From Thermocrinis sp. (GTDB lineage Bacteria; Aquificota; Aquificia; Aquificales; Aquificaceae), in the NCBI GenBank assembly GCA_020833645.1, contig JAJHRQ010000009.1, positions 313 through 32,312 on the forward strand: a DNA stretch of 32,000 nucleotides. The letters run 5' to 3'. The notes below the pieces were generated by a model. The model searched no databases and was not told where the DNA came from. It saw nothing but the letters and a program-made list of their open reading frames with translations. A program made the translations under genes and the position numbers. Position 1 is the first letter of the stretch; each line of letters opens with the position of its first letter. Positions 5,606 through 18,516 of this stretch are shown piece by piece.

Positions 5606-6709
5606 TCAATCAAAAATGGACCCACCCGCCAGCAGATGTCCCAATAGACCAGTCATGTTAAGATACACCCGATCAAATTCCAGTACCCAATAGTCTCCTT
5701 CTTTTTCCAACCGCCTTTGTAGTACTTGCACTTGTGAGGACGCATGCTTTATACTTTCGATAAAAAGTAGGGCATTCTCCCTTGTTTTAAACCTGCACCG
5801 GAAGGTCCTATAAACACGCCCATCCTTTTTAGACATTTCGATTGCCTTAAGAAGCCCTTCCAAAAAGGCTTTACCTACTTTTAAAAAGAGCTCTTGGTCT
5901 ACCTCTATGCCTTCCTCTTCCATAAAGAGGGCTAACCTCAATAGCCTGTTGGTAAAGTAATCAGAGGGCAAACCGAGAAGATTTACGGAAGTTATTTCTA
6001 TGTCCTTTAGGCTTGAATAAAAGGTTACATACTTTACCCTTTTGTCCCTCTCTGAGTCTTCCTTCATTACTACTCCCTCTCTACCCTCCTCGCTCAGCCT
6101 TTTCATCAATCTTTTTAGCTTATCCACATCCTCCACACTAAAGAGTCCATACCTTTCCACCGAAGGAAGCCCATACTTTTCAATAAGCTTCTCTTTTTCC
6201 CTGTATGGAAGAAACTTCTGGGAGTCTTTCTCCATTATGTCAAAGACAAAGAACTGGACATCCTCTTTGATGTAAGGGGGATGCTCATCCACGTAGGGGT
6301 TTTCTGGTCCTGCCACCTCTGCGCATAAAACGAGGTTAGGATGGTCTTCAAAAAACTTGAGGTTTATAAAGTCTTCAACCCTCTCGGTGGTAAAGGGGCA
6401 TACATAACCTCCTCTACTTAAGGCTAAGATCTGGTCCTCGTAAAGAAAGATCCGCGTGTTGTATCCGTCTACCTTTTCTTCTACAAAGAAAGGATGTGTA
6501 AATTGTTCCTTTAGCCCTGTGCTCAGCTGGAAAATCCTGCCTATGTGGGGGTACCCCCAAAGGGTAAAGGACTTAAAAAGGGCTGTGCCCCTTGGCACAT
6601 CCTTAAAGTCATCCACGAACCTTAGGTATTCTATGCCCTTGTAGTTTTCTATCTTTACTTTGTTCCTCTTGAGGGCTTCTCTTACGAGTTCTGGTGGTAG
6701 CTGTGTCAT
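5606..6709 (-). CDS. ATP-dependent RNA ligase, archaeal Pab1020/MthRnl-like (Rnl3-type)
   Basis: 367 aa with nucleotidyltransferase motif I EEKVDGYN (KxDG) and an upstream WGYPHIGR motif typical of this family. Confidence 0.75.
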   Translation of the reverse strand: MTQLPPELVREALKRNKVKIENYKGIEYLRFVDDFKDVPRGTALFKSFTLWGYPHIGRIFQLSTGLKEQFTHPFFVEEKVDGYNTRIFLYEDQILALSRGGYVCPFTTERVEDFINLKFFEDHPNLVLCAEVAGPENPYVDEHPPYIKEDVQFFVFDIMEKDSQKFLPYREKEKLIEKYGLPSVERYGLFSVEDVDKLKRLMKRLSEEGREGVVMKEDSERDKRVKYVTFYSSLKDIEITSVNLLGLPSDYFTNRLLRLALFMEEEGIEVDQELFLKVGKAFLEGLLKAIEMSKKDGRVYRTFRCRFKTRENALLFIESIKHASSQVQVLQRRLEKEGDYWVLEFDRVYLNMTGLLGHLLAGGSIFD

Positions 6710-6738: not shown

Positions 6739-6811
6739 GGGCTGGTAGCTCAGCTGGCAGAGCAGCGGACTCTTAATCCGCGGGTCGCGGGTTCGAGTCC
6801 CGCCCAGCCCA
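6739..6811 (+). tRNA. tRNA-Lys (anticodon CTT)
   Basis: Acceptor stem GGGCTGG/CCAGCCC, D-arm TAGCTCAGCTGGCAGAGCA, anticodon stem-loop GCGGA-CTCTTAA-TCCGC and T-arm GCGGGTTCGAGTCCCGC. No CCA is encoded. Confidence 0.95.
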
Positions 6812-6820
6812 CTTTTCAAA

Positions 6821-8838: not shown

Positions 8839-8904
8839 AGAAGAGCATTATAATATAGGCTATTCTTTTATATGTGATGAAATTTAAAGTCTTAGTGTTT
8901 TTGA

Positions 8905-9011
8905 TAAGCTTATTTGAGGGCTACCCATTACCTCTGATATAGGCGTGGGAACAGGCTAAGCCTGTATCCCTTCTCGCATTTTGGGGGGTGGGTAGCCCTC
9001 AAATAAGCTTA
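8905..9011. repeat. 23-bp perfect inverted repeat forming a long hairpin with a nested stem
   Basis: TAAGCTTATTTGAGGGCTACCCA (8905-8927) pairs perfectly with 8989-9011. The inner stem is ACAGGC/GCCTGT (8951-8965). The two internal loops are about 23 nt each. Confidence 0.9.
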
Positions 9012-9086
9012 AAGCGGTCATCCCTGATGGTGGTAATGGGGCAGGCTTTTGCCTGACCTCTCAAAGAATAGTGGGAGGCCGTATAA
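8905..9086 (+). ncRNA. Candidate IS110-type bridge/guide RNA, or structured 5' leader of the recombinase gene
   Basis: About 180 nt directly upstream of an IS110-family recombinase. It contains a long stem with large internal loops plus a second hairpin CAGGC-TTTT-GCCTG (9042-9055). Confidence 0.3.
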
Positions 9087-10205
9087 ATGCTATATGCAGG
9101 TGTAGATGTAAGTAAGGACAAGGTTAGTTTGGCTGTTTTAACGAGCGGAGGAACCAAGCTAACAAGCGGAGACTTTGACATCACAACGGAAGGACTAAAG
9201 CTTTTGGAACTGACCCTGAAACATCTAAAGGACGAGATAAGCATGGCTATTGAACAAACGGGAACCTATTCAATGCCTGTAATTCTCTATTTGATGGAAA
9301 GGGTGGAAGGGTTAAGGATTTACTTAGTGGATGGTCTGAACTTCAACAGGTTTATAAAGCTTGAAGGAAGGAAAAAGCAGGACAAGGCGGACGCAGTCAG
9401 TTTAGCAGAATACCTGAGGAGAGGGCTACCAGCAAGGCTAATAACAAGCAAGGACATAAAGGCATACGGGTTAAAGGTTCTGATAAGCGAAAGGGAACAC
9501 TTGCTGAAGGTAAAAAACCAGATAGAAAACAGGCTAAGGCAACTTGTGGAGACGATATTTCCAGACAGCAAGACATTAAGCAAGCCAGTTTTTTGGTCAG
9601 AGATAAGGAAGGGAAGGGCTATCCTTGACTGGAAAAGGCTAACGGACAAGGCAGAAGTGTTATCAACCATTCTAAGGGAGAGGAAAATATGGCTGGAAGT
9701 AGTCCATAGCTTGGAGGAGACGGAAAGGGAAATAAACGCATTCCTACGGGCATACTATCCTGAGGACTTAAACATCCTAAAAAGCTTTGGGTTCTCAGAG
9801 ACAACCATAGCATACTTCATAAGTGTTTATGTGGATATAGGAAGGTTCAAGGATGTTAAGGCTTTTAAAAGCTATATGGGCTTGGGCTTGAGAATATACC
9901 AGTCAGGGAAAAAGGAGAAAAACGTAGTCAATAGCTACACCAACAAATACATAAGGAAACTGCTTTATATGTATTTAGTCCAAGCGGTAAGGGAAAGAAG
10001 CAACCACAGGAGGGTTAAGGAATACTACCTTAGGCAAGTGGAAAAAAGCGGAAGCAAAAAGAAGGCAATATTAAAGACTGCTGGAAAGGTTATTGAATGG
10101 GTTTATTACTGTCTTAAGCATAAAGAACCTTTCAGATGGGAGGCTAACTATGAAACACAACAGGAAAACCTTAGCCAAGTTAATAGCGAACAGACTGAAG
10201 ATTAA
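9087..10205 (+). CDS. IS110-family DEDD transposase/recombinase (Piv-like), apparently intact
   Basis: 372 aa. The N-terminal RuvC-like DEDD motifs are YAGVDVSKD, AIEQTGTY and KKQDKADAVSLAEYL. The C-terminal Tnp domain is GFSETTIAYFISVYVDIGRFKDVKAFKSYMGLGLRIYQSGKK, including the conserved QSG serine. Confidence 0.9.
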   Translation: MLYAGVDVSKDKVSLAVLTSGGTKLTSGDFDITTEGLKLLELTLKHLKDEISMAIEQTGTYSMPVILYLMERVEGLRIYLVDGLNFNRFIKLEGRKKQDKADAVSLAEYLRRGLPARLITSKDIKAYGLKVLISEREHLLKVKNQIENRLRQLVETIFPDSKTLSKPVFWSEIRKGRAILDWKRLTDKAEVLSTILRERKIWLEVVHSLEETEREINAFLRAYYPEDLNILKSFGFSETTIAYFISVYVDIGRFKDVKAFKSYMGLGLRIYQSGKKEKNVVNSYTNKYIRKLLYMYLVQAVRERSNHRRVKEYYLRQVEKSGSKKKAILKTAGKVIEWVYYCLKHKEPFRWEANYETQQENLSQVNSEQTED

Positions 10206-10359
10206 AGAGGAAACGGTGGAAAGGGTGATAAAGGAGTTTGTGGAAACGGTGCGGGAGGAAGTAAGGAAGGGAGGAGTAATTGAAATCCGAGGGCTGGCAA
10301 GCTGGAAAAAGAACAAAAAGGGAAAAGTAAAGGTTAAGAACTTCATAAGGGAGGGTTAA
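10150..10359 (+). CDS. Truncated HU/IHF-like small DNA-binding protein
   Basis: The SD GGGAGG lies 6 nt upstream of the ATG at 10150. The 69-aa product has an HU-like helical N-terminal half (LAKLIANRLKIKEETVERVIKEFVETVREEVRKGGVIEIRGL) but lacks the long beta-arm. The ORF overlaps the recombinase 3' end. Confidence 0.55.
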   Translation: MKHNRKTLAKLIANRLKIKEETVERVIKEFVETVREEVRKGGVIEIRGLASWKKNKKGKVKVKNFIREG

Positions 10360-10361
10360 AG

Positions 10362-10592
10362 ATGGCATGGATGGACTTTAAACACATCCCAGCTAAGCAG
10401 GTTATGATTGCTAAGGTTATTGAAGTGTTAGAGGAAGTGGAACCGAACCTTTGGAGGGTCAGGGTAAAACACAACTGGATAGGAGTTCCTGAGATTATAG
10501 AAATAGCAGGAGAAAGACCACAGGAGGGAGAGATATTAGACCTTTACCCTGTGCCATACGAACAATGGAAAGAATGGACACAAGGGCAATAA
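10362..10592 (+). CDS. Hypothetical protein (prophage accessory/regulatory module)
   Basis: 76-aa ORF with the SD GGAGGG upstream, tightly following the HU-like ORF. Confidence 0.5.
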   Translation: MAWMDFKHIPAKQVMIAKVIEVLEEVEPNLWRVRVKHNWIGVPEIIEIAGERPQEGEILDLYPVPYEQWKEWTQGQ

Positions 10593-10915
10593 AGGAACAA
10601 CTCAGGGAAATAGAGGAAGAACTGAAGAGGGAAGTTCTCAGGCTGTGCGGAGAACTTGGGATTAAAGACAGAACCCTAAAGAACTTTGAATATAAAACAA
10701 TAAGCCTGTGCATGCTTGAAATCAGAACGGAGGGCGGGCGGGTCTATAGATACCAACAACTGAAGGGAGAACTGGAGAGAGGAAAGACAATAACCATAAA
10801 CAACTGGAGGCACGAGGAGACACCCTTTAGAACACTAAACAGACTTATTAACCTTTACAGGGCTACCAAGGGCGTAATGAAAGCCAACGAATACCTGAAG
10901 AGGGAACCCTGTTAG
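10565..10915 (+). CDS. Hypothetical coiled-coil protein (prophage accessory/regulatory module)
   Basis: 116-aa ORF overlapping the previous ORF, with a charged helical N-terminus (IKEQLREIEEELKREVLRL). Confidence 0.45.
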   Translation: MERMDTRAIKEQLREIEEELKREVLRLCGELGIKDRTLKNFEYKTISLCMLEIRTEGGRVYRYQQLKGELERGKTITINNWRHEETPFRTLNRLINLYRATKGVMKANEYLKREPC

Positions 10916-10919
10916 TTTC

Positions 10920-11123
10920 TCACGGGCGGACTAAAAGAAGGAAAGCCCAGAAGAGAATAGCAAGGGTCATAACAAACAGCCAAAGCCAGAAGGCAAAGGG
11001 CAAAGTAGGAGAGGGTTTATTTTGCCATGGAGGAGCTTTCTCAGGGTCTGGCAGTTTAGAATGCTGAACCTCTTCCGAGGGCTTCCTTTCCTTCCTCATA
11101 TAGTCCCTATCATACAGTCCCAT
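10920..11123 (-). CDS. Small membrane protein with a C-terminal TM helix
   Basis: 67 aa with a polar, Pro-rich N-terminus followed by FAFWLWLFVMTLAILFWAFLLLV. A GAGG SD lies 7 nt upstream. Confidence 0.45.
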   Translation of the reverse strand: MGLYDRDYMRKERKPSEEVQHSKLPDPEKAPPWQNKPSPTLPFAFWLWLFVMTLAILFWAFLLLVRP

Positions 11124-11297
11124 GGCAGAACCTCAACTTAGGGTGAAATTTTAACCCTTAAGTGTGGGACAGGTGCAAAGTTTAAAATTAGGTGATAAGT
11201 AATACAAGCCCACAGGCAGGCGGGCTTACGCCCCGCCCCTGCCCTGCTTGGCCTTGGTGGGAACGCTAACACATGGACAAAAATGGCCTTACGGCCA

Positions 11298-11357
11298 CTG
11301 GGAGAGGGGGAGGGTCTCCAAGGTCTAAGGCTCTGGCCGACCCTCCCCCTCTCCCAG
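11298..11357. repeat. Perfect 19-bp-stem hairpin
   Basis: CTGGGAGAGGGGGAGGGTC (11298-11316) is the exact reverse complement of GACCCTCCCCCTCTCCCAG (11339-11357). The loop is 22 nt. Confidence 0.95.
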
Positions 11358-11378
11358 ACCCTCACCCCCACCCGCCAG

Positions 11379-11499
11379 AGCCTTAACCGTGGCTGGCTGG
11401 CAGACCAGCCGCAAAGCTAACGCTTAGACAACACATAAACGCTTAAGTGCTAATGCTTAAGCTTGGTCCCACAAGCCAGCCAGCCACTGGGTTAAGGCT
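11379..11499. repeat. Long interrupted inverted repeat (10 + 12 bp stems) enclosing short direct repeats
   Basis: AGCCTTAACC-G-TGGCTGGCTGGC (11379-11401) pairs with GCCAGCCAGCCA-CTG-GGTTAAGGCT (11475-11499). Inside, AACGCTTA occurs twice (11419, 11438) and GCTTAAG twice (11441, 11455). Confidence 0.85.
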
Positions 11500-11599
11500 A
11501 AAGATTTCTAAAATTTGATTTACATAAACTTTCAGAAAGGTTTAAAACATCATTTTTAGAACCGATTTCAACGACGGGCGGGAAGGCGGGCGAGGGCAA

Positions 11600-12691
11600 C
11601 TAAGGAAGTTCAATAATCTTAGGGCCTGAAGACAGGTCTAAGCCAGAACTGGCGGGCGGGCGGGCGGAAGGGCGGGCAACCTCAATAACGATATAGCCAT
11701 AGCCACCAACGGAAGGAGAGGGAGAAGGAGAGGGCGAAGCAGAAGGAAAGGAAGAAACAGAAGGAGAAGAGGGAACTTCGGGAGAAGAGTAAGCTGAAGG
11801 ATAGGAATAGGAGGGAGAGGAACCAGAAACGGAGGAAGGAGGAGAGGAAAACCCAGAGGAACCAGAAGGAGGAGAGCCAAAGAAAGAAGGTCTTTTTTCA
11901 TTCTTTACTCCTTTCTCCTGAGCCTGAGAAACCTTAGGCTTGGGAATTATCCCACCGTGGGTTTTAACGTAGGAACCAAGCTGAATAATGGCAAAGAAGG
12001 CAACCGCAACAGCAACGAAAAGCATAACGGGAGGCCTACCCTTAACTCCTTTCATGTGTTCCACGAGGGCGGAACGATAAAGGACAAAGATTTTAGGGTC
12101 ATACTTAACAATGCTTTTTTTGACAGGGACACCACCGATTATGGTCTTCAAAACTGCCATATTGGAAATGCCAAAAACACGGAGGCTTACAAGGCGGAGT
12201 TCAATCTCAACAAGGTTTCTTATGGCTTTGTTCATCCTTTGAATGCTTTGGGTGATGATGAAGAAGTCAAGTCCTAAGTGTCTGTGATAGTCAAAGAAGA
12301 ATTTTTGAAGCTGGGTTAGTTCTGTGTCTTCATCAATAATAGACTGGAACTCATCCAGATAGAAAATAACCTTTCTATAGCCCAACTCACCAAAAAGCTT
12401 GGGAATTATGAACCTTTTCCAGTAATCCACATTGAGGATAGTCAGGAAAGCATTCCTGTAATTGCCATCATAATGCATATTGCAAAAGGAGAGGGCTGTG
12501 GCGAGGAATTCATCCAAAGTCCAAAGGTTATTAACCTCTTTGCCGAGGTAAAAGGAAAGCTTAGCCCTGTCCAAGCCGTCAATGTTGGAAACAACAAGGT
12601 TAGTATCCTTCTTCAGGTCTTCAACAATCCTTTTAACCGCATAGTAGGACTTACCAGCCCCAGGGCTACCTGTTATAAACACTATAGCCAT
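11600..12691 (-). CDS. Zot/pI-like filamentous-phage assembly ATPase
   Basis: 363 aa with Walker A at the extreme N-terminus (FITGSPGAGKSYYAV), Walker B-like VIFYLDEFQ, a single TM (VMLFVAVAVAFFAIIQLGSYV) and a Ser/Pro-rich periplasmic tail. It follows the pVI-like ORF as in Ff. Confidence 0.8.
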   Translation of the reverse strand: MAIVFITGSPGAGKSYYAVKRIVEDLKKDTNLVVSNIDGLDRAKLSFYLGKEVNNLWTLDEFLATALSFCNMHYDGNYRNAFLTILNVDYWKRFIIPKLFGELGYRKVIFYLDEFQSIIDEDTELTQLQKFFFDYHRHLGLDFFIITQSIQRMNKAIRNLVEIELRLVSLRVFGISNMAVLKTIIGGVPVKKSIVKYDPKIFVLYRSALVEHMKGVKGRPPVMLFVAVAVAFFAIIQLGSYVKTHGGIIPKPKVSQAQEKGVKNEKRPSFFGSPPSGSSGFSSPPSSVSGSSPSYSYPSAYSSPEVPSSPSVSSFPSASPSPSPSPSVGGYGYIVIEVARPSARPPASSGLDLSSGPKIIELP

Positions 12692-12694
12692 GGC

Positions 12695-12916
12695 TTAGAC
12701 CCTGAAGAAGGGAATAAGGTTAAGGACAAACCTAATAGTTAGGGCGGTTCCCAATATGCCTATAGCCTGAGGAATTCCAGAGTTAGCCAAAAACCAGTTA
12801 TCAATGGTAAGGGAAGCCAGAGGAGATATAGGGATAGACAAAGCAGACAGCAAGGAAAGGACAAAGGAAAAAATACCCTGAAGCAGAGAAACAAAAGCAC
12901 AATAAACGGCACACAT
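12695..12916 (-). CDS. pVI-like small polytopic membrane protein (minor virion protein candidate)
   Basis: The ATG at 12916 is preceded by the SD AAGGAGGG, 7 nt upstream. The 73-aa product is very hydrophobic and sits between the pIII-like and Zot-like genes. The tracked start at 12949 is probably too long. Confidence 0.6.
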   Translation of the reverse strand: MCAVYCAFVSLLQGIFSFVLSLLSALSIPISPLASLTIDNWFLANSGIPQAIGILGTALTIRFVLNLIPFFRV

Positions 12917-12918
12917 GG

Positions 12919-14946
12919 CTAAACCCTCCTTATTGGGATATTTTTCCAAAGTTCAAAGATTGACATGGAAACCAAAAGGGCAGAGATAAAGCCAAAGATA
13001 GAAGCAAGCCCGACAAAAGAGTAAAAGATTAAGTTCCTTAGTTCATCAAAATTAGCATAAAGCATTTGTTCCTGTTCCCTACACTTATCAGAGTTAGGAA
13101 GGGCATCCTGAAGAGTATTAGTCAGGCTAACCACGGAAACCACCTCTTGGGTTATAAGCCAGTTAATGGCAGGAATAAGTTCCTCTTCTGGAAAGATTTC
13201 AACAACAACCTCAACCGCAGGAATGGAAATAGTATCAGGAGAAACATAAGGAGAACACCGAGAAGGAAAAGGAGTAGAAGGGCGGACAATAAAACGCTGA
13301 GGAGAAGGAATAGGAAGAGGCTGGATTAAAGTATCAGGGTCAAGCTGAGGGAGAAGGTCAGGAGAAACCTCAATATAAGGAACATCTCCCAGAGGAAGAG
13401 GAAAAGGGTTTAAGTAAGGAGAAAGATCACGCAAAGGTAAAGTCTGAGAGACAGTCCGACAGATTTCTCCTTTCTCATCATCTGTTAAATCATCAAAGTT
13501 AGGAGGGAGAGGGTTATATTCAGGAACTGAAAGAGAAGGAGAGTCAGGAGGGCGGGCACGAGGGATATTAGGCCAAGGGAGAATAATCTCCTTGGGATAG
13601 GTGGCAGGATTATCCCAATCAAATTCACAGACCTTACGACATGAACATTGACCAGAAAGAACAGGTCCAAAATGTGTATGAAAACAATTATCAACAACAA
13701 AACTAACCACAGAACTACAATTACAAACATAGCAAGGGTCATAACTAAAATGCCATTGGCCACAATCAAAGGGAGGGATATATTCACACACGAGATAAGG
13801 ATTACCATCCTGTCCAAAGCACTTAGAATAATAACTATATAGTGATGAATCACACCACCAAGCATTAGTATCATTAGGCCCCCAGGGCGCATTTCCATTC
13901 CCAGCAATATAAACGGGAGCATCCGACTGGAAAGGAAGAGGAAACGCAGCATTAGCATAATGAAACTGATAAGAAACTAATACACCAGCCAAACTTGAAA
14001 CATAAAGAAATTTAGGAGAACGAGGATCATCTCCAGAAAGACCGTGAGGAACAGTAAGAAGATTACCGAAATGGTGAGGGTCAAAATAATCAGGATACCA
14101 ATGGTAAGGCGACCAATCGGAATTTGGAACGGTTTTATAACCTACTAAAAGACCTCTTTCACATACGGCGTAAATATCATAACAGGTAGAACTAACAAGG
14201 CGAGGAACTGGAGGGCAAGGCTGACCAATCTCAGGCAGGTTAGAAAGGTCAGGCAAAAGGGAAGGGTTAAACCCATTGGGAACAATAATCCCAAAACCAA
14301 GCCCTGAATGATTAACACTTTTCCACTGAAGGTATAAAAGGCGACGGATTAAAAGGGTTTGTTCCTCTACAAGATTAACATAGCCAAACTCCAAAAGAGG
14401 GTTAAAAAGCACATTGAACCCAAGCTTAACAATCTGAGAAACTGAGGAGAGAAAACCAGAGAGAAGGCGGTTAAAAAGCCTTGTATTATTAACAGAGTTC
14501 TTTAAATAGAAAAGGTCAGGGTATAAAGCCCTCAGGGCGGGAGCTATTACCTCTATGCTTTGTTTAAGCTCAACTTGACGGAGAACCAAATTCCTTAATT
14601 TTGTTTGTAAATCCGTAGCGGGCTGGAGTGTAGAATAGGAACGAGGATTTTGGATAAAGTCCGTATAAACATCCTTAGCAGAAGCAAACTCAGAAAGGGC
14701 AGACTGGTAGGCTTGCTTTTTCATGCGAAAATCTTCAAGCTGAACATAATCAACATTTTTAGACATTTCCCACATCCTTTCCAGAATTTCCAACGAGTCA
14801 GAGAGGGCGAGAGACCTTTCATAAAGATAGTTCAGATACTGAACGACGGCGTCATTATCCACCTTGGGCATCTGCAATTTAGCCTCATAGACCACAGAAG
14901 CAGGAAAGCCCAGACCAAAGAGAAAGAGAAGGAGAACCCACCGCAT
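12919..14946 (-). CDS. pIII-like adsorption / virion-cap protein candidate (675 aa)
   Basis: It has a signal peptide (MRWVLLLFLFGLGFPASVV), a helical N-terminal third, a central Cys/aromatic-rich domain, a Pro-rich linker (PLPPNF...PFPLPLG...PLPIPSP) and a C-terminal TM anchor (FVGLASIFGFISALLVSMSIF). Confidence 0.65.
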   Translation of the reverse strand: MRWVLLLFLFGLGFPASVVYEAKLQMPKVDNDAVVQYLNYLYERSLALSDSLEILERMWEMSKNVDYVQLEDFRMKKQAYQSALSEFASAKDVYTDFIQNPRSYSTLQPATDLQTKLRNLVLRQVELKQSIEVIAPALRALYPDLFYLKNSVNNTRLFNRLLSGFLSSVSQIVKLGFNVLFNPLLEFGYVNLVEEQTLLIRRLLYLQWKSVNHSGLGFGIIVPNGFNPSLLPDLSNLPEIGQPCPPVPRLVSSTCYDIYAVCERGLLVGYKTVPNSDWSPYHWYPDYFDPHHFGNLLTVPHGLSGDDPRSPKFLYVSSLAGVLVSYQFHYANAAFPLPFQSDAPVYIAGNGNAPWGPNDTNAWWCDSSLYSYYSKCFGQDGNPYLVCEYIPPFDCGQWHFSYDPCYVCNCSSVVSFVVDNCFHTHFGPVLSGQCSCRKVCEFDWDNPATYPKEIILPWPNIPRARPPDSPSLSVPEYNPLPPNFDDLTDDEKGEICRTVSQTLPLRDLSPYLNPFPLPLGDVPYIEVSPDLLPQLDPDTLIQPLPIPSPQRFIVRPSTPFPSRCSPYVSPDTISIPAVEVVVEIFPEEELIPAINWLITQEVVSVVSLTNTLQDALPNSDKCREQEQMLYANFDELRNLIFYSFVGLASIFGFISALLVSMSIFELWKNIPIRRV

Positions 14947-14948
14947 AG

Positions 14949-15368
14949 CTACCTACGAAAGATAATGAAGTAGCTAAGGATGGTGGCGAAGATAATCCAA
15001 GCAGTCTTAAGGGACATCAAAAGCAAACGCATAAGAGGGTGGTTTGCTATATCTATTGTGGTATGGATGAAGGGAGGGAGATTAACCACAATGGGCGGTG
15101 GGGGGTTATCTTCAACATTCAAACGGAAGGAGGAAAGGAAAAGGAAAAGGTCAGTGTTTTTAGCAGAGTTTATAAAGTCTTCCAGAACCCGAGAGATTGA
15201 AGGGCAAGAACAGGAAGAGGAACAATAAGAGTGATCAGCTATAAAAACGGAATTCCTTTCTCTACAAACGCAAGCCCGACCCTGTCCAGTGTTTTCAAAC
15301 CGACAGGTTAAGGCAAGGGCTGAATAGGAGGAAAGGAGGAAAAGGAGGAAAGCAATAACTGCCTTCAT
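14949..15368 (-). CDS. Secreted Cys-rich protein with a C-terminal membrane anchor (minor virion protein candidate)
   Basis: 139 aa with a signal peptide ending ALA, the motif GQGRACVCRERNSVFIADHSYCSSSCSC, a poly-Pro stretch and the TM AWIIFATILSYFIIF. Confidence 0.6.
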   Translation of the reverse strand: MKAVIAFLLFLLSSYSALALTCRFENTGQGRACVCRERNSVFIADHSYCSSSCSCPSISRVLEDFINSAKNTDLFLFLSSFRLNVEDNPPPPIVVNLPPFIHTTIDIANHPLMRLLLMSLKTAWIIFATILSYFIIFRR

Positions 15369-15580
15369 TTTGAAGACCTCTTAAGGGCTTTACCTACCAG
15401 AATGGCGGAGAAGGTTCCAAGAACGGTGGAAAGACCTAAGACCATCTTAAGGAAGTCCGATTTAAATTCCTGTATGGTTTGGTTTAATTGGTTAAGGGCA
15501 TTCACATAGTCCAAACACTCACACTGAGACTGAGCAAAGGCAAAGGCTAACAGACTAAAAAACAACCCTAAGAACCGCAT
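15365..15580 (-). CDS. Second coat-protein-like small protein
   Basis: Using the ATG at 15580, the product is 71 aa. It has a signal peptide MRFLGLFFSLLAFAFA, a polar segment, the TM MVLGLSTVLGTFSAILVG and a basic tail KALKRSSK. Confidence 0.55.
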   Translation of the reverse strand: MRFLGLFFSLLAFAFAQSQCECLDYVNALNQLNQTIQEFKSDFLKMVLGLSTVLGTFSAILVGKALKRSSK

Positions 15581-16094
15581 AGGCACCCCCCAGAAGACCG
15601 AAAGCAAAAGAGGAACCGATGAAAACCTTTAAAAAGCCTTCCTTTACACCCTGAAAAGTGTCTATAAGGTTATTAACGGACTGGCAGGCAAAACCTGAAC
15701 TTGAACCTGAACCTGAACCACCTAAAAATTCATCAGGAAAGCAAGGAGAAGAAGAACAGGAAAAAGAGGGAGGAATAGGAATGCCCTCAGAAGAGGAAGA
15801 AGAGGAGCAACTAATGGAACCATTGGAAGAAACACGACAGCTAAAGGACAAACCCTCACAGGAGCTAAACAATGAAGAGCAATAAGAATAATTATCATCA
15901 AAGTTAGGCTCTGAAGGGTCATATATGAAAAATAAACGGAGACCCCCATCATCAAGAACATAACAAACGCAACCATTACCAGCATATGGAGGAGAAGGTG
16001 AAAAAGTGGCAGGATAACAACACATTTTAGAAAAGGCGGGCAAGGAACCCGCCAGAACTAAAAAGAGGAACAGGACAACAGGAAGGACTGGCAT
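15555..16094 (-). CDS. Secreted Cys/Ser-rich protein with a C-terminal membrane anchor, paralogous N-domain to 14949-15368
   Basis: 179 aa with a signal peptide, the motif GNGCVCYVLDDGGLRLFFIYD...NYSYCSS, poly-Ser/Gly linkers and a C-terminal TM. Its start overlaps the upstream stop as TAATG. Confidence 0.6.
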   Translation of the reverse strand: MPVLPVVLFLFLVLAGSLPAFSKMCCYPATFSPSPPYAGNGCVCYVLDDGGLRLFFIYDPSEPNFDDNYSYCSSLFSSCEGLSFSCRVSSNGSISCSSSSSSEGIPIPPSFSCSSSPCFPDEFLGGSGSGSSSGFACQSVNNLIDTFQGVKEGFLKVFIGSSFAFGLLGGAYAVLRVVF

Positions 16095-16300
16095 TATGCC
16101 CTGTTTAGAGCCTTCTTTATTACCCTGTAGGTGAGGAAGAATATCAGGATGGAAGCTACCGCAGAGAGCAGTCCCTGAATACCAGAAACAAGGCTATTTA
16201 CCGCATTCATTGCATCCTCAAGTATTCCAGCGTGGGCAAAACCAGAAGAAGCAAGCAAAACCAAGCCAGAAACTGCCAACAAGCTAAAAAGTTTCCTCAT
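16094..16300 (-). CDS. Major coat protein (pVIII-like) candidate
   Basis: 68 aa with a signal peptide ending AHA. The mature product is about 44 aa, with an acidic N-terminus (GILEDAMNAV), a hydrophobic core and a basic C-terminus (YRVIKKALNRA). The SD AAGGAGGTG lies upstream, and there is an ATGA overlap with the preceding ORF. Confidence 0.7.
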   Translation of the reverse strand: MRKLFSLLAVSGLVLLASSGFAHAGILEDAMNAVNSLVSGIQGLLSAVASILIFFLTYRVIKKALNRA

Positions 16301-16596
16301 GATGGCACCTCCTTTAAGGATTCTTGGGTTTGGGTTTGGGACTGATTGATTGATTGGTTTAATTGATTGGTTAATTGGCTTTCATAGTGTTTAAGAACAA
16401 CATCATAAACGGAATGCCAGTAATAGCTGTCCTCCTTACCCTTAGACCAGTCTATAGGGAAAGGAAGCCTTTCCACCTCATCCAGAAAGGCAAGAACAAC
16501 CTTTTTAATGTGGGCTTTATCATCTTTGAAGAGGGAAAGGAAGGCATAAGGCGAAGAGTAGTATTTGAAGAAGTCCTTAATCTTTTTCTTTGCCAT
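16297..16596 (-). CDS. Hypothetical soluble protein with a Q/N/S/T-rich tail
   Basis: The ATG at 16596 is preceded by the SD AGGTGG. The 99-aa product has no TM segment. The tracked GTG at 16605 is the less likely start. Confidence 0.5.
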   Translation of the reverse strand: MAKKKIKDFFKYYSSPYAFLSLFKDDKAHIKKVVLAFLDEVERLPFPIDWSKGKEDSYYWHSVYDVVLKHYESQLTNQLNQSINQSQTQTQESLKEVPS

Positions 16597-16606
16597 GGTT
16601 TCCACC

Positions 16607-16738
16607 TCATAGCTTTTTTAAAATCCATATAGGAATGGTAAGCACCCAGATAAAGAAGAAAACACCGGTAAAGAAGGGCACGGTTCCAGTGAAAGCAGTA
16701 GAGAAGGCGGAAACTATCTGAGCCACTATATCATCCAT
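16607..16738 (-). CDS. Untracked 43-aa hydrophobic ORF (pVII/pIX-like candidate)
   Basis: My own translation is MDDIVAQIVSAFSTAFTGTVPFFTGVFFFIWVLTIPIWILKKL. Its ATG shares the A of the upstream TGA (TGATG). It lies between the ssDNA-binding candidate and the coat gene, as gVII/gIX do in Ff. Confidence 0.5.
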   Translation of the reverse strand: MDDIVAQIVSAFSTAFTGTVPFFTGVFFFIWVLTIPIWILKKL

Positions 16739-17055
16739 CACTTAGCCCCTTTCTTATCATCCATCACGGGAATAGGAGAAGAAAAGTCCTCAAAGACAGA
16801 AAAGCCACCCACCGATGGGAAGGTATCACCCAAAGAAATGGTCAAGCCTGAGATAGGGACATCAATAACCACTCCAGGAGCTATTGGGAGATTAACGGGA
16901 GCAGAGACAACAAGGTATAGCGGGAAATCAGGCTTTTCATTCCTTAGCCTACCGTAAAGCTGATAGATGGCACCCTGACGGCCATTCTTTTCCCAAGTTC
17001 TCCTTTTCTCCACAAGGAGAACCTGAAGCTTAAGAGGAGAACCAAAGCTTTCCAT
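16738..17055 (-). CDS. ssDNA-binding protein (gpV-like) candidate
   Basis: The ATG at 17055 is preceded by the SD AGGGGGTG. The product is 105 aa, sits directly after Rep, and has a beta-rich pattern reminiscent of Ff gpV (GRQGAIYQLYGRL...FPLYLVV...APGVVIDV). Confidence 0.45.
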   Translation of the reverse strand: MESFGSPLKLQVLLVEKRRTWEKNGRQGAIYQLYGRLRNEKPDFPLYLVVSAPVNLPIAPGVVIDVPISGLTISLGDTFPSVGGFSVFEDFSSPIPVMDDKKGAK

Positions 17056-17217
17056 ATTGCACCCCCTTTTTAGGGATTTCATTATTCAATGTAAGGGATG
17101 GGAAAAAGGGAAAGAAAAAACCAAGCCTTTTAAGTTTAAAGATAGCTGGAGAATAGGCAAAAGTTAGGAAAAAGGAGAGGGTTAAAGTGGAAAGTGTTTT
17201 TAACTTAATGCTAAGGT

Positions 17218-18165
17218 TTAGGAATACATATTCCTAAAGACCTTGGACAGGGAGAAGAGTAATCCGTCCTTCTCTAAGGCACCGCAATCATAAAAGCACC
17301 TGTAAAACTCACTAAAGGCTATGCCCAGAGGCTTGTAATAAGCCCTGTAAAGGGTGGAGATAGGGACAAAGCCATAGAGGGAAGCTTGGGAAGTCTGAAG
17401 GGCAACCCTCTTTAAAAGCCTTGACATGAAGAAAAGGCGAACCCTGAAATACCACATAAGGAGGGTAGAAAGGCGAACCCGAACCTGACCATCCGAGGAA
17501 ATGGAAAAAGACCAATATTTATGGTGGGACTTTACCAGATATTTTAAAAGGTAAGCTTTTATCTTCTCTGTGTCCCTTCCTATAAACTGGACATCCACTC
17601 CTTGGAAGGCTGAGAGGCTTTTTCCTGTCCTTGTATCCTTCCACCACTTATGAATTTGTTCCACCTTGACAAAGGGAAAGGAAACGAGAAGGTGAATGTG
17701 AGGGTAATCATCTTGATGAGGCTCAGGAACGGCAAAATAAAGGAACTGTTCTATTCCATATTTCTTTTTTAGATAGACACGGAAACGGCGGAGGAAGTCC
17801 GAGAGCCAAGTCCCAATATAAGCCCAAGCATCTTGGATAGATATATCCCTACTTAAGGTTAAGGTGATAAGAACCCAGTTAAGCTTTGGGATTTCCAGAT
17901 GCTTTAGCCAAGCGTAATGGTTCCTACGGAAATAACGAAGCTTTGGCATGCTTACGATTGCCTTTCCAGAAGAAGAGAAAACAGGAAGGGAGTTTAGTTT
18001 TTTGAGATACCAAAGGACATATAACTTAGCCAACTCTAAGGCATTATGGGAATTTCTCACATCACGGCCACCTTCCCAGTCCGAGAGGATTTCCAGAAGG
18101 TCAGGGTTTAGTTCATTAATGTTATAGGTGATGTAAGGCACAGGAATAAGATAACACAAGGGCAA
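17218..18165 (-). CDS. Rolling-circle replication initiator (HUH Rep, gpII-like)
   Basis: 315 aa carrying RCR motif 1 VLITLTLS, motif 2 YPHIHLLVSF (HUH) and motif 3 KAYLLKYLVK (YxxxY). The tracked start is TTG with no clear SD, so the N-terminus is uncertain. Confidence 0.75.
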   Translation of the reverse strand: MPLCYLIPVPYITYNINELNPDLLEILSDWEGGRDVRNSHNALELAKLYVLWYLKKLNSLPVFSSSGKAIVSMPKLRYFRRNHYAWLKHLEIPKLNWVLITLTLSRDISIQDAWAYIGTWLSDFLRRFRVYLKKKYGIEQFLYFAVPEPHQDDYPHIHLLVSFPFVKVEQIHKWWKDTRTGKSLSAFQGVDVQFIGRDTEKIKAYLLKYLVKSHHKYWSFSISSDGQVRVRLSTLLMWYFRVRLFFMSRLLKRVALQTSQASLYGFVPISTLYRAYYKPLGIAFSEFYRCFYDCGALEKDGLLFSLSKVFRNMYS

Positions 18166-18303
18166 GAAAAGAAAAAGACAAAGATAGAAGGAAGTAAGGG
18201 ACAGGTTAAGGGATTAAGTCCATAGGGCAGTAAGGGAAAGGAGAAAGTGAAAATATGATTTAGGTCATATTGGGAGGGCTTGACAAAGTCCTATAATGGT
18301 GGT

Positions 18304-18516
18304 ATGCGAGTTAGAGTTTTGATCACTCCCAAGGAGGGACTTTTGGACCCAGAGGGGAGGGCGGTAAAGGAGATCCTTGAGGATAACGGATACAAGGTTA
18401 AGAGTGTAAGGGTAGGCAAGGTGGTTGAGTTGGAGGTGGATGACCCATCCCAAGTTAAGGAGATGGTGGAAAAGTTCCTATACAACCCTCTCATAGAGGA
18501 GTACGTGATAGAATGA
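18304..18516 (+). CDS. purS: Phosphoribosylformylglycinamidine synthase subunit PurS
   Basis: 70 aa from the ATG at 18304 (MRVRVLITPKEGLLDPEGRAV), coupled to purQ. The tracked TTG at 18280 is probably too far upstream. Confidence 0.9.
   Translation: MRVRVLITPKEGLLDPEGRAVKEILEDNGYKVKSVRVGKVVELEVDDPSQVKEMVEKFLYNPLIEEYVIE

Follow-up and report, generated by a model that had tools for sequence, protein, structure and literature searches.

An IS110-family recombinase and a predicted bridge RNA at one end of a filamentous prophage of Thermocrinis

The locus

The DNA analyzed here is a stretch of 32,000 nucleotides (nt) from Thermocrinis sp. (Aquificaceae), positions 313 to 32,312 of the forward strand of contig JAJHRQ010000009.1 (assembly GCA_020833645.1). 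This whole stretch is called the window, and positions are counted from its first letter. The window carries an inovirus-like (filamentous) prophage of 9,442 bp, a size within the inovirus range of 5-12 kb, that encodes a Zot/pI ATPase, a rolling-circle Rep, and a small coat-like protein. At one end of the prophage lies the gene of a recombinase of the insertion sequence (IS) family IS110, preceded by a structured leader. An initial annotation of the window had proposed that the two are a phage integrase and its bridge RNA. Matches between the leader and the attachment (att) sites, a covarying structure, covariation of guides with flanks, and an empty site all support this proposal, and the locus is very probably a functional or recently functional module for bridge-RNA-guided phage integration. 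The main features are as follows.

8861..18305, no strand: integrated inovirus-like prophage including both core copies; net insert 9,442 bp, from empty-site contigs and gene content
8862..9086, + strand: predicted bridge RNA, about 225 nt, between the phage left end and the recombinase ATG at 9087
8905..9011, + strand: target-binding stem-loop (outer stem 8905-8934/8983-9011; inner hairpin 8947-8970)
9014..9082, + strand: donor-binding stem-loop (outer stem 9014-9024/9073-9082; inner hairpin 9038-9060)
9087..10205, + strand: IS110-family DEDD/Ser recombinase, 372 amino acids (aa), presumed phage integrase

As had been noticed, the recombinase gene is transcribed opposite to the structural genes, the Zot, coat, and Rep genes being on the other strand. 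The host genes beside the prophage are DUF3108 on the left and purS-purQ on the right.

The recombinase

The 372-aa protein matches the Pfam families DEDD_Tnp_IS110 (PF01548, 1e-24, residues 4-159) and Transposase_20 (PF02371, 2.5e-12, residues 233-314), and the IS621 transposase (8wt6) aligns with it by sequence (E=1e-11). In this alignment D7, E56, D99, D102, and S273 stand opposite IS621 D11, E60, D102, D105, and S241, the catalytic roles of which have been described (PMC11208158). The presence of both domains and of all five residues agrees with the earlier description of an intact enzyme with the DEDD motif and a C-terminal serine. The five residues are invariant among relatives with the sole exception of D99, which is Y in the truncated P0005. 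Judged by its sequence, the protein is an IS110-family (DEDD/Ser) recombinase homologous to the IS621 bridge recombinase. It had also been described as the sole recombinase of the element, and no second integrase was found among the phage open reading frames (ORFs) that were scanned. A tblastn search against deposited phages returned distant (24%) Bacillus phage transposases alone and no filamentous relative at E<=1e-5.

Prophage boundaries and the empty site

Related prophages for the alignment of the boundaries were found with the recombinase protein. The conserved phage sequence starts as ...|(T)ATTCTTTTATA and ends as ...TATAATGGTGGT|ATG. From these ends, the site before integration, attB, was predicted to be TTATAATATAGGC-TAT-GCGAGTT. 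Exact look-up of the PurS protein gave eight contigs in which DUF3108 adjoins purS, while exact-protein look-up of the DUF3108 neighbor gave no record. Going by the contig names, some of the samples are from Yellowstone springs (YNPsite11). All eight contigs (L008, L010, L011, L013-L017) read GCATTATAATATAGGCTATGCGAGTTAGAG, which is the predicted attB. The string that they have across the empty site is GCATTATAATATAGGCTATGCGAGTTAG, with 8860/8863 joined directly to 18306. Therefore, the insert is 9,442 bp, and TAT is duplicated at the junctions. Other loci have only AT in common, which reduces the minimal core to these two bases, with which the purS start codon begins. The prophage is thus inserted exactly at the purS start codon. 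Empty sites of targets other than purS were also sought among the fetched loci, where purS alone was found. The junctions and half-sites are listed below.

8853..8860, + strand: LT, the left half-site in the host (ATATAGGC), with the same sequence as the 5' guide of loop 1
8861..8863, no strand: core TAT, attL copy (attB GGC-TAT-GCG in 8 empty sites compared with attL and attR)
8861..8868, + strand: RD, phage left end TATTCTTT, complementary to the 3' guide of loop 2
18296..18304, + strand: LD, phage right end ATGGTGGTA, identical to the left donor guide (LDG)
18303..18305, no strand: core TAT, attR copy (same empty-site comparison)
18304..18516, + strand: host purS, 70 aa, beginning with RT, the right half of the target (ATG and 4 nt, 18304-18310)

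The phage site attP is predicted to be …TAATGGTGG-TAT-TCTTTTATA…, to be recombined with attB, …ATATAGGC-TAT-GCGAGTT…. The sequence expected at the junction of the circular phage is …TAATGGTGGTATTCTTTTATA….

Structure of the leader

The predicted bridge RNA consists of an AU-rich 5' leader, the target-binding stem-loop, and the donor-binding stem-loop; its 5' end would be near 8862, judging from promoter geometry. Positions 8880-9090 fold with -98.2 kcal/mol (z=-7.7), which is reached by 0 of 200 shuffles, and positions 8862-9086 with -99.2 kcal/mol (z=-7.4). The opposite strand reaches only -79.8 kcal/mol, 18 kcal/mol worse than the strand in the sense of the recombinase. Several pairs in the fold are invariant G-U pairs; on the other strand these become A-C mismatches.

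The perfect 23-bp inverted repeat that had been reported at 8905-8927/8989-9011 is present and unique in the window (0 expected by chance), and the second reported hairpin, at 9042-9055, is present as well. Two internal loops and a nested stem within the first hairpin were also found as described. Their reported size of about 23 nt does not hold: after extension of the stem by CCUC/GGGG, the loops are 12 nt on each side, 8935-8946 (5') and 8971-8982 (3'). The internal loops of the donor stem-loop are 9025-9037 (5') and 9061-9072 (3'). In both stem-loops the internal loop is thus symmetric, with 12-13 nt per side.

A consensus structure was built from 18 non-identical leaders. For its 51 consensus pairs, 99.6% of the cells are paired. 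Double-sided changes are found at 6 of the 51 pairs, compared with 0 in six slid controls and 0 in 500 shuffles. Once the leaders of L045 and L048, whose recombinases are 43-55% identical, join the alignment, the fold is kept and the number of compensatory pairs rises to 19 of 56. Both folding and covariation in homologous loci thus support the structure first proposed from the window.

Guides and their matches

The internal loops contain four guides, two for the host target and two for the phage as the donor.

8937..8944, + strand: left target guide (LTG) AUAUAGGC, same sense as host LT at 8853-8860
8973..8979, + strand: right target guide (RTG) CUCGCAU, complement of host ATGCGAG at 18304-18310 (purS start codon and 4 nt)
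9027..9035, + strand: LDG AUGGUGGUA, same sense as the phage right end at 18296-18304
9063..9071, + strand: right donor guide (RDG) AAAGAAUAG, of which AAAGAAUA (9063-9070) complements the phage left end TATTCTTT at 8861-8868

The initial annotation had noted that one 8-mer is shared by 8937-8944 and 8853-8860. This 8-mer, ATATAGGC, is present at both positions, and the latter copy directly abuts the left junction of the prophage. The match is beyond chance, as a match between loop and flank recurs with different sequences in 10 of 16 related prophages (0 of 20,000 permutations). Complementarity of the loops to attB and attP had been suggested as a check; all four guides match, and attB is confirmed on the 8 empty-site contigs. 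The (T)AT core is covered by RTG and RDG, half-covered by LDG, and outside LTG. Handshake guides as in IS621 were also considered. In the window, the donor-loop AG that follows the core-pairing AU complements the CT before the target core; the pattern is inconsistent across sites, and handshake guides are not proposed here.

Covariation of guides with insertion sites

Related prophages at many host genes were collected by a metagenome scan and other look-ups. Left guides were compared using 16 distinct combinations of leader and flank, and an exact match of at least 8 nt was required between an 11-nt segment of the loop and the prophage's own left flank. Such matches are found in 10 of the 16 combinations, a number reached by 0 of 20,000 permutations, and non-cognate pairs of left guide and flank reach 8 nt in 1.3%. 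The ten matches each differ in sequence, as listed here.

Window: ATATAGGC
L001: ATGTGTTC
L003: TATAATGCC, or TTATAATGCC counting the U that closes the outer stem
L018: ATTAGACCT
L030: ATATTCTC
L033: TACATGCTC
L036: TATAACACA
L037: ATAATACCA
L038: TATATTACC
L041: ATACAACC

Right guides were compared with the first 4 nt after the ATG. Cognate pairs agree at 3.2 of 4 positions, compared with 1.25 of 4 for non-cognate pairs (permutation 10/20,000), and in L005 the match of the right guide extends over 9 nt. L001 and L033 are both inserted upstream of queH in different hosts, and their left guides track the host difference (ATGTGTTC versus ACATGCTC). Similarly, the lineages of the window and of L003 are both found at purS, each with a left guide that fits its own upstream sequence. 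The hypervariable part of the leader consists of the guide columns only: column entropy is about 1.05 bits in the guides and 0.07-0.20 in the stems and donor loops. The donor loop also covaries with the phage end, as L048 has the donor guide AUAGUGGUA and the right end ATAGTGGTA.

L048 and L045 represent a divergent clade, in which the structure and the covariation of the donor guide hold. The left end of the element was not located in this clade, and the target guides do not match the single right flank at hand. In both, a conserved ORF extends into the target stem-loop at its 5' arm (L045 1-880; L048 1-90). The L048 contig is labeled as an Archaeoglobaceae metagenome-assembled genome; its gene set is of the same inovirus type.

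Target genes and promoters

In all right ends examined, the phage sequence is followed immediately by the A of an ATG with which a real ORF begins. The main-clade ORFs are 70-457 aa long and represent seven genes (purS, queH, an argH-like gene, and genes of 174, 218, 239, and 157 aa). An eighth target gene, in L048, encodes an amidohydrolase, and its ORF runs off the contig. The native upstream sequences were taken from the left flanks of the window, L001, L003, L018, L030, L033, L036, L037, L038, and L041. They are AT-rich and have a TATAAT-like box a few nt before the ATG and no Shine-Dalgarno sequence, which suggests that the target genes are leaderless. The guides begin with invariant bases (-AU-), which looks like a constraint on the guide to overlap a -10 box. 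Two promoter-like sequences are found at the borders of the prophage in the window.

8849..8854, + strand: host TATAAT, -10-like hexamer of the purS promoter region, displaced by integration and now facing the phage left end
18270..18297, + strand: outward-facing promoter-like site TTGGGA-16-TATAAT in the phage right end, from a promoter scan; function putative

In the empty sites, the purS TATAAT is 7 nt upstream of the ATG with no Shine-Dalgarno sequence between them. The phage right end closes with TATAAT-GGTGGT directly before the ATG, and the right-end motif is conserved in all right ends found. Inspection of the sequence further indicates a conserved TTGACA at 18280-18285, which would sit 17 nt before TAT|TCT across the circle junction, in a way similar to the junction promoter of IS621. 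TTGACA...TATAAT was considered as a single consensus promoter of the right end and rejected, as the spacer is only 6 nt and the scan supports TTGGGA-16-TATAAT.

Since the right end carries a promoter-like site of its own abutting the ATG, the host gene would remain expressed after integration. The displaced host -10 box, which has the same spacing to the phage left end, may in turn be used to transcribe the bridge RNA and recombinase genes. Once the phage is circular, the promoter or promoters of the right end could read over the junction into the bridge RNA.

The HU-like gene

The gene next to the recombinase gene encodes a small DNA-binding protein.

10150..10359, + strand: HU/IHF-like DNA-binding protein, 69 aa (Pfam Bac_DNA_binding, phrog_379, synteny)

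The Pfam match (Bac_DNA_binding, 1.3e-8) was scored on a longer ORF of 88 aa, 10093-10359. The gene overlaps the 3' end of the recombinase gene by 56 nt. It is found directly after the recombinase gene in all nine loci with gene tables (L001-L007, L048), among which L001/L002 and L003/L004 are duplicate pairs. Counterparts are located at 11064-11273 in L001 and at 1321-1533 in L048, and the position is kept even in the divergent clade (about 53% identity). The HU-like protein may be an architectural cofactor or a directionality factor of the recombinase.

Proposed mechanism

In the proposed mechanism, the recombinase would use the two loops of the RNA to read two DNA sites. Loop 1 would read the host target, its 5' strand being identical to the left flank and its 3' strand complementary to the right half. 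Loop 2 would read the phage attP, with AUGGUGGUA identical to the right end and AAAGAAUA complementary to the left end. Strand exchange at the common (T)AT core would follow, carried out by a recombinase tetramer. The target would be the start codon of a host gene with a nearby TATAAT-like box and no Shine-Dalgarno sequence, and changes of guide nucleotides would retarget phage lineages to other genes.

A wider proposal is offered tentatively, and we consider it somewhat less probable than not. A lineage of hyperthermophilic filamentous phages would have made the bridge RNA a programmable reader of att sites, in which point changes among about 12 guide nucleotides move the phage from one start codon to another, the genes being different and seemingly leaderless, with the HU-like protein as a dedicated architectural cofactor. 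Integration would also swap promoters: the host gene would come under the phage promoter, and the genes of the bridge RNA, recombinase, and HU-like protein under that of the host gene. Such a swap would wire the control of lysogeny and excision to the regulation of the targeted host gene.

Alternative explanations

The recombinase and its leader could be an autonomous IS110 insertion sequence that landed in or near the prophage, the phage itself integrating by other means. The protein is indeed a typical two-domain IS110 protein, and IS elements do invade such prophages, as the DDE transposases in L005 and L006 indicate. However, the donor-loop guides match the two ends of the prophage, 9.4 kb apart, rather than sequences bordering a 1.4-kb IS, and the empty site demonstrates insertion of the entire 9,442-bp unit. 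In the gene-listed loci, the order recombinase-HU-...-Zot-...-Rep is kept where contigs reach; every such relative has the HU-like gene and then phage genes, and no solo copy turned up. The phage right-end motif is found 9.1-10.2 kb downstream of the target loop in L022, L026, L033, L037, and L041. The lack of another integrase among the scanned phage ORFs also argues against an IS. The distant donor-guide matches, the empty site, and the synteny together indicate that the recombinase is not an independent IS, and we regard this explanation as extremely improbable. The initial annotation had named an independent multi-copy IS as the finding that would overturn its proposal; in every relative with enough flank shown or scanned, the HU-like gene instead comes after the recombinase gene and, if the contig is long enough, is followed by the Zot...Rep genes or the right-end motif of the phage.

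It is very unlikely that the stem-loops act as DNA, either as a folded single-stranded DNA (ssDNA) attP or as an origin or packaging hairpin read by proteins. Inoviruses have ssDNA stages, and some integrate as folded ssDNA, as CTXphi does with XerCD; Neisseria Nf phages target hairpin-forming repeats, and the perfect 23-bp stem would form in DNA too. The crossover at 8861-8863 is, however, 40-200 nt upstream of the hairpins. The loops covary with the two host half-sites, in the sense orientation with one and in antisense with the other, as is characteristic of a bridge RNA, and the strand that folds better, by 18 kcal/mol and via conserved G-U pairs, is the recombinase-sense strand. Inoviruses normally package the strand that has the sense of their structural genes, which here would be the strand opposite to that of the recombinase. 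The structured region at 11130-11600 is a better candidate for an origin or packaging signal. The leader could also be mainly a cis-regulatory 5' untranslated region that controls translation of the recombinase, with incidental matches to the flanks. In favor of such a role, the Shine-Dalgarno-like GGGAGG of the recombinase gene (9073-9078, 9 nt before the ATG) is in the 3' arm of the outer stem of the donor loop, so that folding of the guide RNA should mask the initiation of translation. This position suggests that folding of the leader and translation of the recombinase would compete. Regulation of this kind would leave unexplained the ten independent exact matches between guide and flank (0/20,000 permutations), the antisense matches of the right guides, and the covariation of the donor loop with the phage ends. 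As the sole role of the leader it is hardly likely; as a side effect it is compatible with the bridge-RNA role and is no alternative to it.

Several observations weigh against the bridge-RNA interpretation itself. RNA production, binding by the protein, and guided recombination are all deduced from sequence. LTG does not pair with the core, unlike the guides of IS621, and its match is separated from the AT core by 0 nt or 1 nt, depending on the site. No 5' stem-loop was predicted: alignment columns 1-56 are AU-rich and have no conserved predicted pairing. In Rfam 15 no match reached the gathering score and only chance-level matches were obtained at E<=10, which is weak evidence in either direction given the uncertain content of bridge-RNA models in that release. 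Neither IMG/VR nor the fetched loci contained a match to the free circular attP junction, ATGGTGGTATTCTTTTATA. The contigs, which are metagenomic, may be chimeric, several right guides have 1-2 mismatches, and 6 of the 16 loci (L005, L006, L021, L022, L026, L029) have no good left-guide match. Among these six, L026 carries L037-lineage guides (ATAATACC / ATGGCAG) at the purS site, and its attL lacks the core TA (GGC|TTCTTTT; L026 2990-3050, 12550-12600). It may be a locked-in or recombinant prophage, or may have arisen through guidance in trans. L005 and L006 are prophages full of IS elements, with shortened recombinases and left guides that do not match their flanks, and they look like decaying copies. 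The left flank of L021 fits neither of its guides, and L022 and L029 have partial guide matches only. Such mismatches could stem from chimeric assembly, recombination of one prophage with a related one, guides that act in trans, or decay. In L005 (8800-15000) and L006 (4700-8500), both from sample 3300071268, many DDE transposase genes (DDE_Tnp_1, IS240-like) are found, and the recombinase is 328 aa long.

Comparison with known systems

Bridge RNAs of the IS110 group, which act with a recombinase, were described for IS621 (Durrant et al. 2024, PMC11208160; Hiraizumi et al. 2024, PMC11208158). The RNA comes from the non-coding end upstream of the recombinase gene; one of its loops reads the target and the other the donor, and in each the left guide pairs with the bottom strand and the right guide with the top strand (PMC11208160). 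The Thermocrinis locus resembles IS621 in many respects. It has a two-domain recombinase with DEDD and Ser, and the RNA is encoded upstream in the non-coding end on the same strand. There are two stem-loops with internal loops, of which the 5' strands have the sense of the left half-sites and the 3' strands complement the right half-sites. A short core common to target and donor is included in the right guides, the guides covary with natural insertion sites, and transcription from a promoter-like site at the right end would cross the circle junction.

Other features differ from those of IS621. The mobile unit is a 9.4-kb inovirus and not a 1.3-kb IS, and the core is (T)AT within a start codon where IS621 has CT. 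LTG is off the core with a spacing that varies by 1 nt, and a 5' stem-loop is missing from the prediction. The full -35/-10 promoter-like site is entirely in the phage right end, from where it would also feed a host gene. The HU-like gene is translationally overlapped with the recombinase gene, and the host is hyperthermophilic. The recombinase has low protein identity to that of IS621, and no similarity of the RNA sequences was detected.

Integrases annotated as IS110-family "transposases" are reported for the Nf/MDA filamentous phages of Neisseria (Kawai 2005, as cited in PMC7058167), and the Thermus filamentous phages phiOH16, Zuza8, and Zuza27 have an IS110-family gene (PMC11437467). As in those proviruses, the Thermocrinis prophage has its replication endonuclease gene at one of the ends and its IS110-family gene, presumed to serve integration and excision, at the other. 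The Neisseria Nf phage differs in targeting the dRS3 repeat, and in the searchable literature a guide RNA is not described for the Neisseria and Thermus phages. The leader of Thermus phiOH16 is structured; a quick repeat search in it gave no convincing pairs of guide and att site.

Expanded IS110 loci mobilize many kb of cargo, and half-matches between guide and flank are common in them (bioRxiv 10.64898/2026.08.14.744561), as in L005. Their cargo is mostly resistance genes or plasmid-like DNA accreted on an IS, whereas the Thermocrinis unit is a complete virus genome with a conserved architecture in which the bridge system would be the lysogeny module.

Integrases of temperate phages may rebuild the gene that they target, for example by integrating into the 3' ends of tRNA genes. 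The Thermocrinis phage is similar in that its end would restore a promoter and the A/T of the start codon. It would differ in having RNA guides in place of an att core read by protein, and in using the junction of promoter and start codon rather than the 3' end of a gene.

The mechanism would be that of IS110 elements in the service of a virus. The new features are the AT core of the start codon, the promoter-bearing right end, the linked HU-like gene, and the hyperthermophilic host. A bridge RNA that guides phage integration was not found in the literature search, the coverage of which is incomplete so that absence is no proof, and is not mentioned in a recent review. On comparative evidence that is unusually clean, the locus joins the IS110 bridge RNAs of 2024 with the IS110 "transposases" that have been assumed since 2005 to integrate filamentous phages of Neisseria, and later of Thermus, so far without a known mechanism of recognition. 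If the interpretation is correct, the attachment-site specificity of a virus is written in RNA rather than in a site read by protein. This would explain how one phage lineage is found in many host genes, at least seven in the main clade, and other inoviruses with IS110 genes would be worth re-examining for guides. RNA-guided insertion of a genome of about 9.4 kb would also have a natural example here. Genome engineers may be interested in such a bridge recombinase, which comes from a bacterium living in very hot springs and would have an AT core and possibly an HU-like cofactor. Targeting of the promoter/start-codon junction, together with promoter replacement, is proposed as a way of integrating at low cost to the host.

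Other features of the prophage

The remaining features of the prophage are as follows.

10362..10915, + strand: small conserved ORFs of 76 and 116 aa that continue the operon-like block
11130..11600, - strand: highly structured intergenic region, candidate packaging signal or origin
11600..12691, - strand: Zot/pI-like assembly ATPase (Pfam Zot, 4.5e-20)
12919..14946, - strand: ORF of 675 aa in the position of the inovirus adsorption protein, assigned by position only
16094..16300, - strand: major-coat-like protein, 68 aa, with weak matches only
17218..18165, - strand: G2P-type rolling-circle replication initiator (Pfam REP_ORF2-G2P, 7.8e-11; phrog_3419)

No family matches were obtained in profile scans for the ORFs of 76 and 116 aa or for the 675-aa ORF. 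The 68-aa coat-like protein has weak matches to Phage_coatGP8 (0.009) and phrog_1646 (6e-4). Folded as ssDNA, the region 11130-11600 has z=-9.5; it contains a G/C-rich perfect 19-bp inverted repeat (11298-11316/11339-11357) and other long hairpins. From what is known of inovirus biology, it is likely to be the packaging signal or replication origin of the filamentous phage. In the 3' part of the Zot gene, imperfect purine-rich repeats (AAGGAGAGGGAGAAGG...) at 11713-11842 encode a Lys/Glu-rich low-complexity tail. Elsewhere in the window, and unrelated to the prophage, a gene for a Pab1020-type RNA ligase (5606-6709, - strand) adjoins a tRNA-Lys(CTT) gene (6739-6812, + strand).

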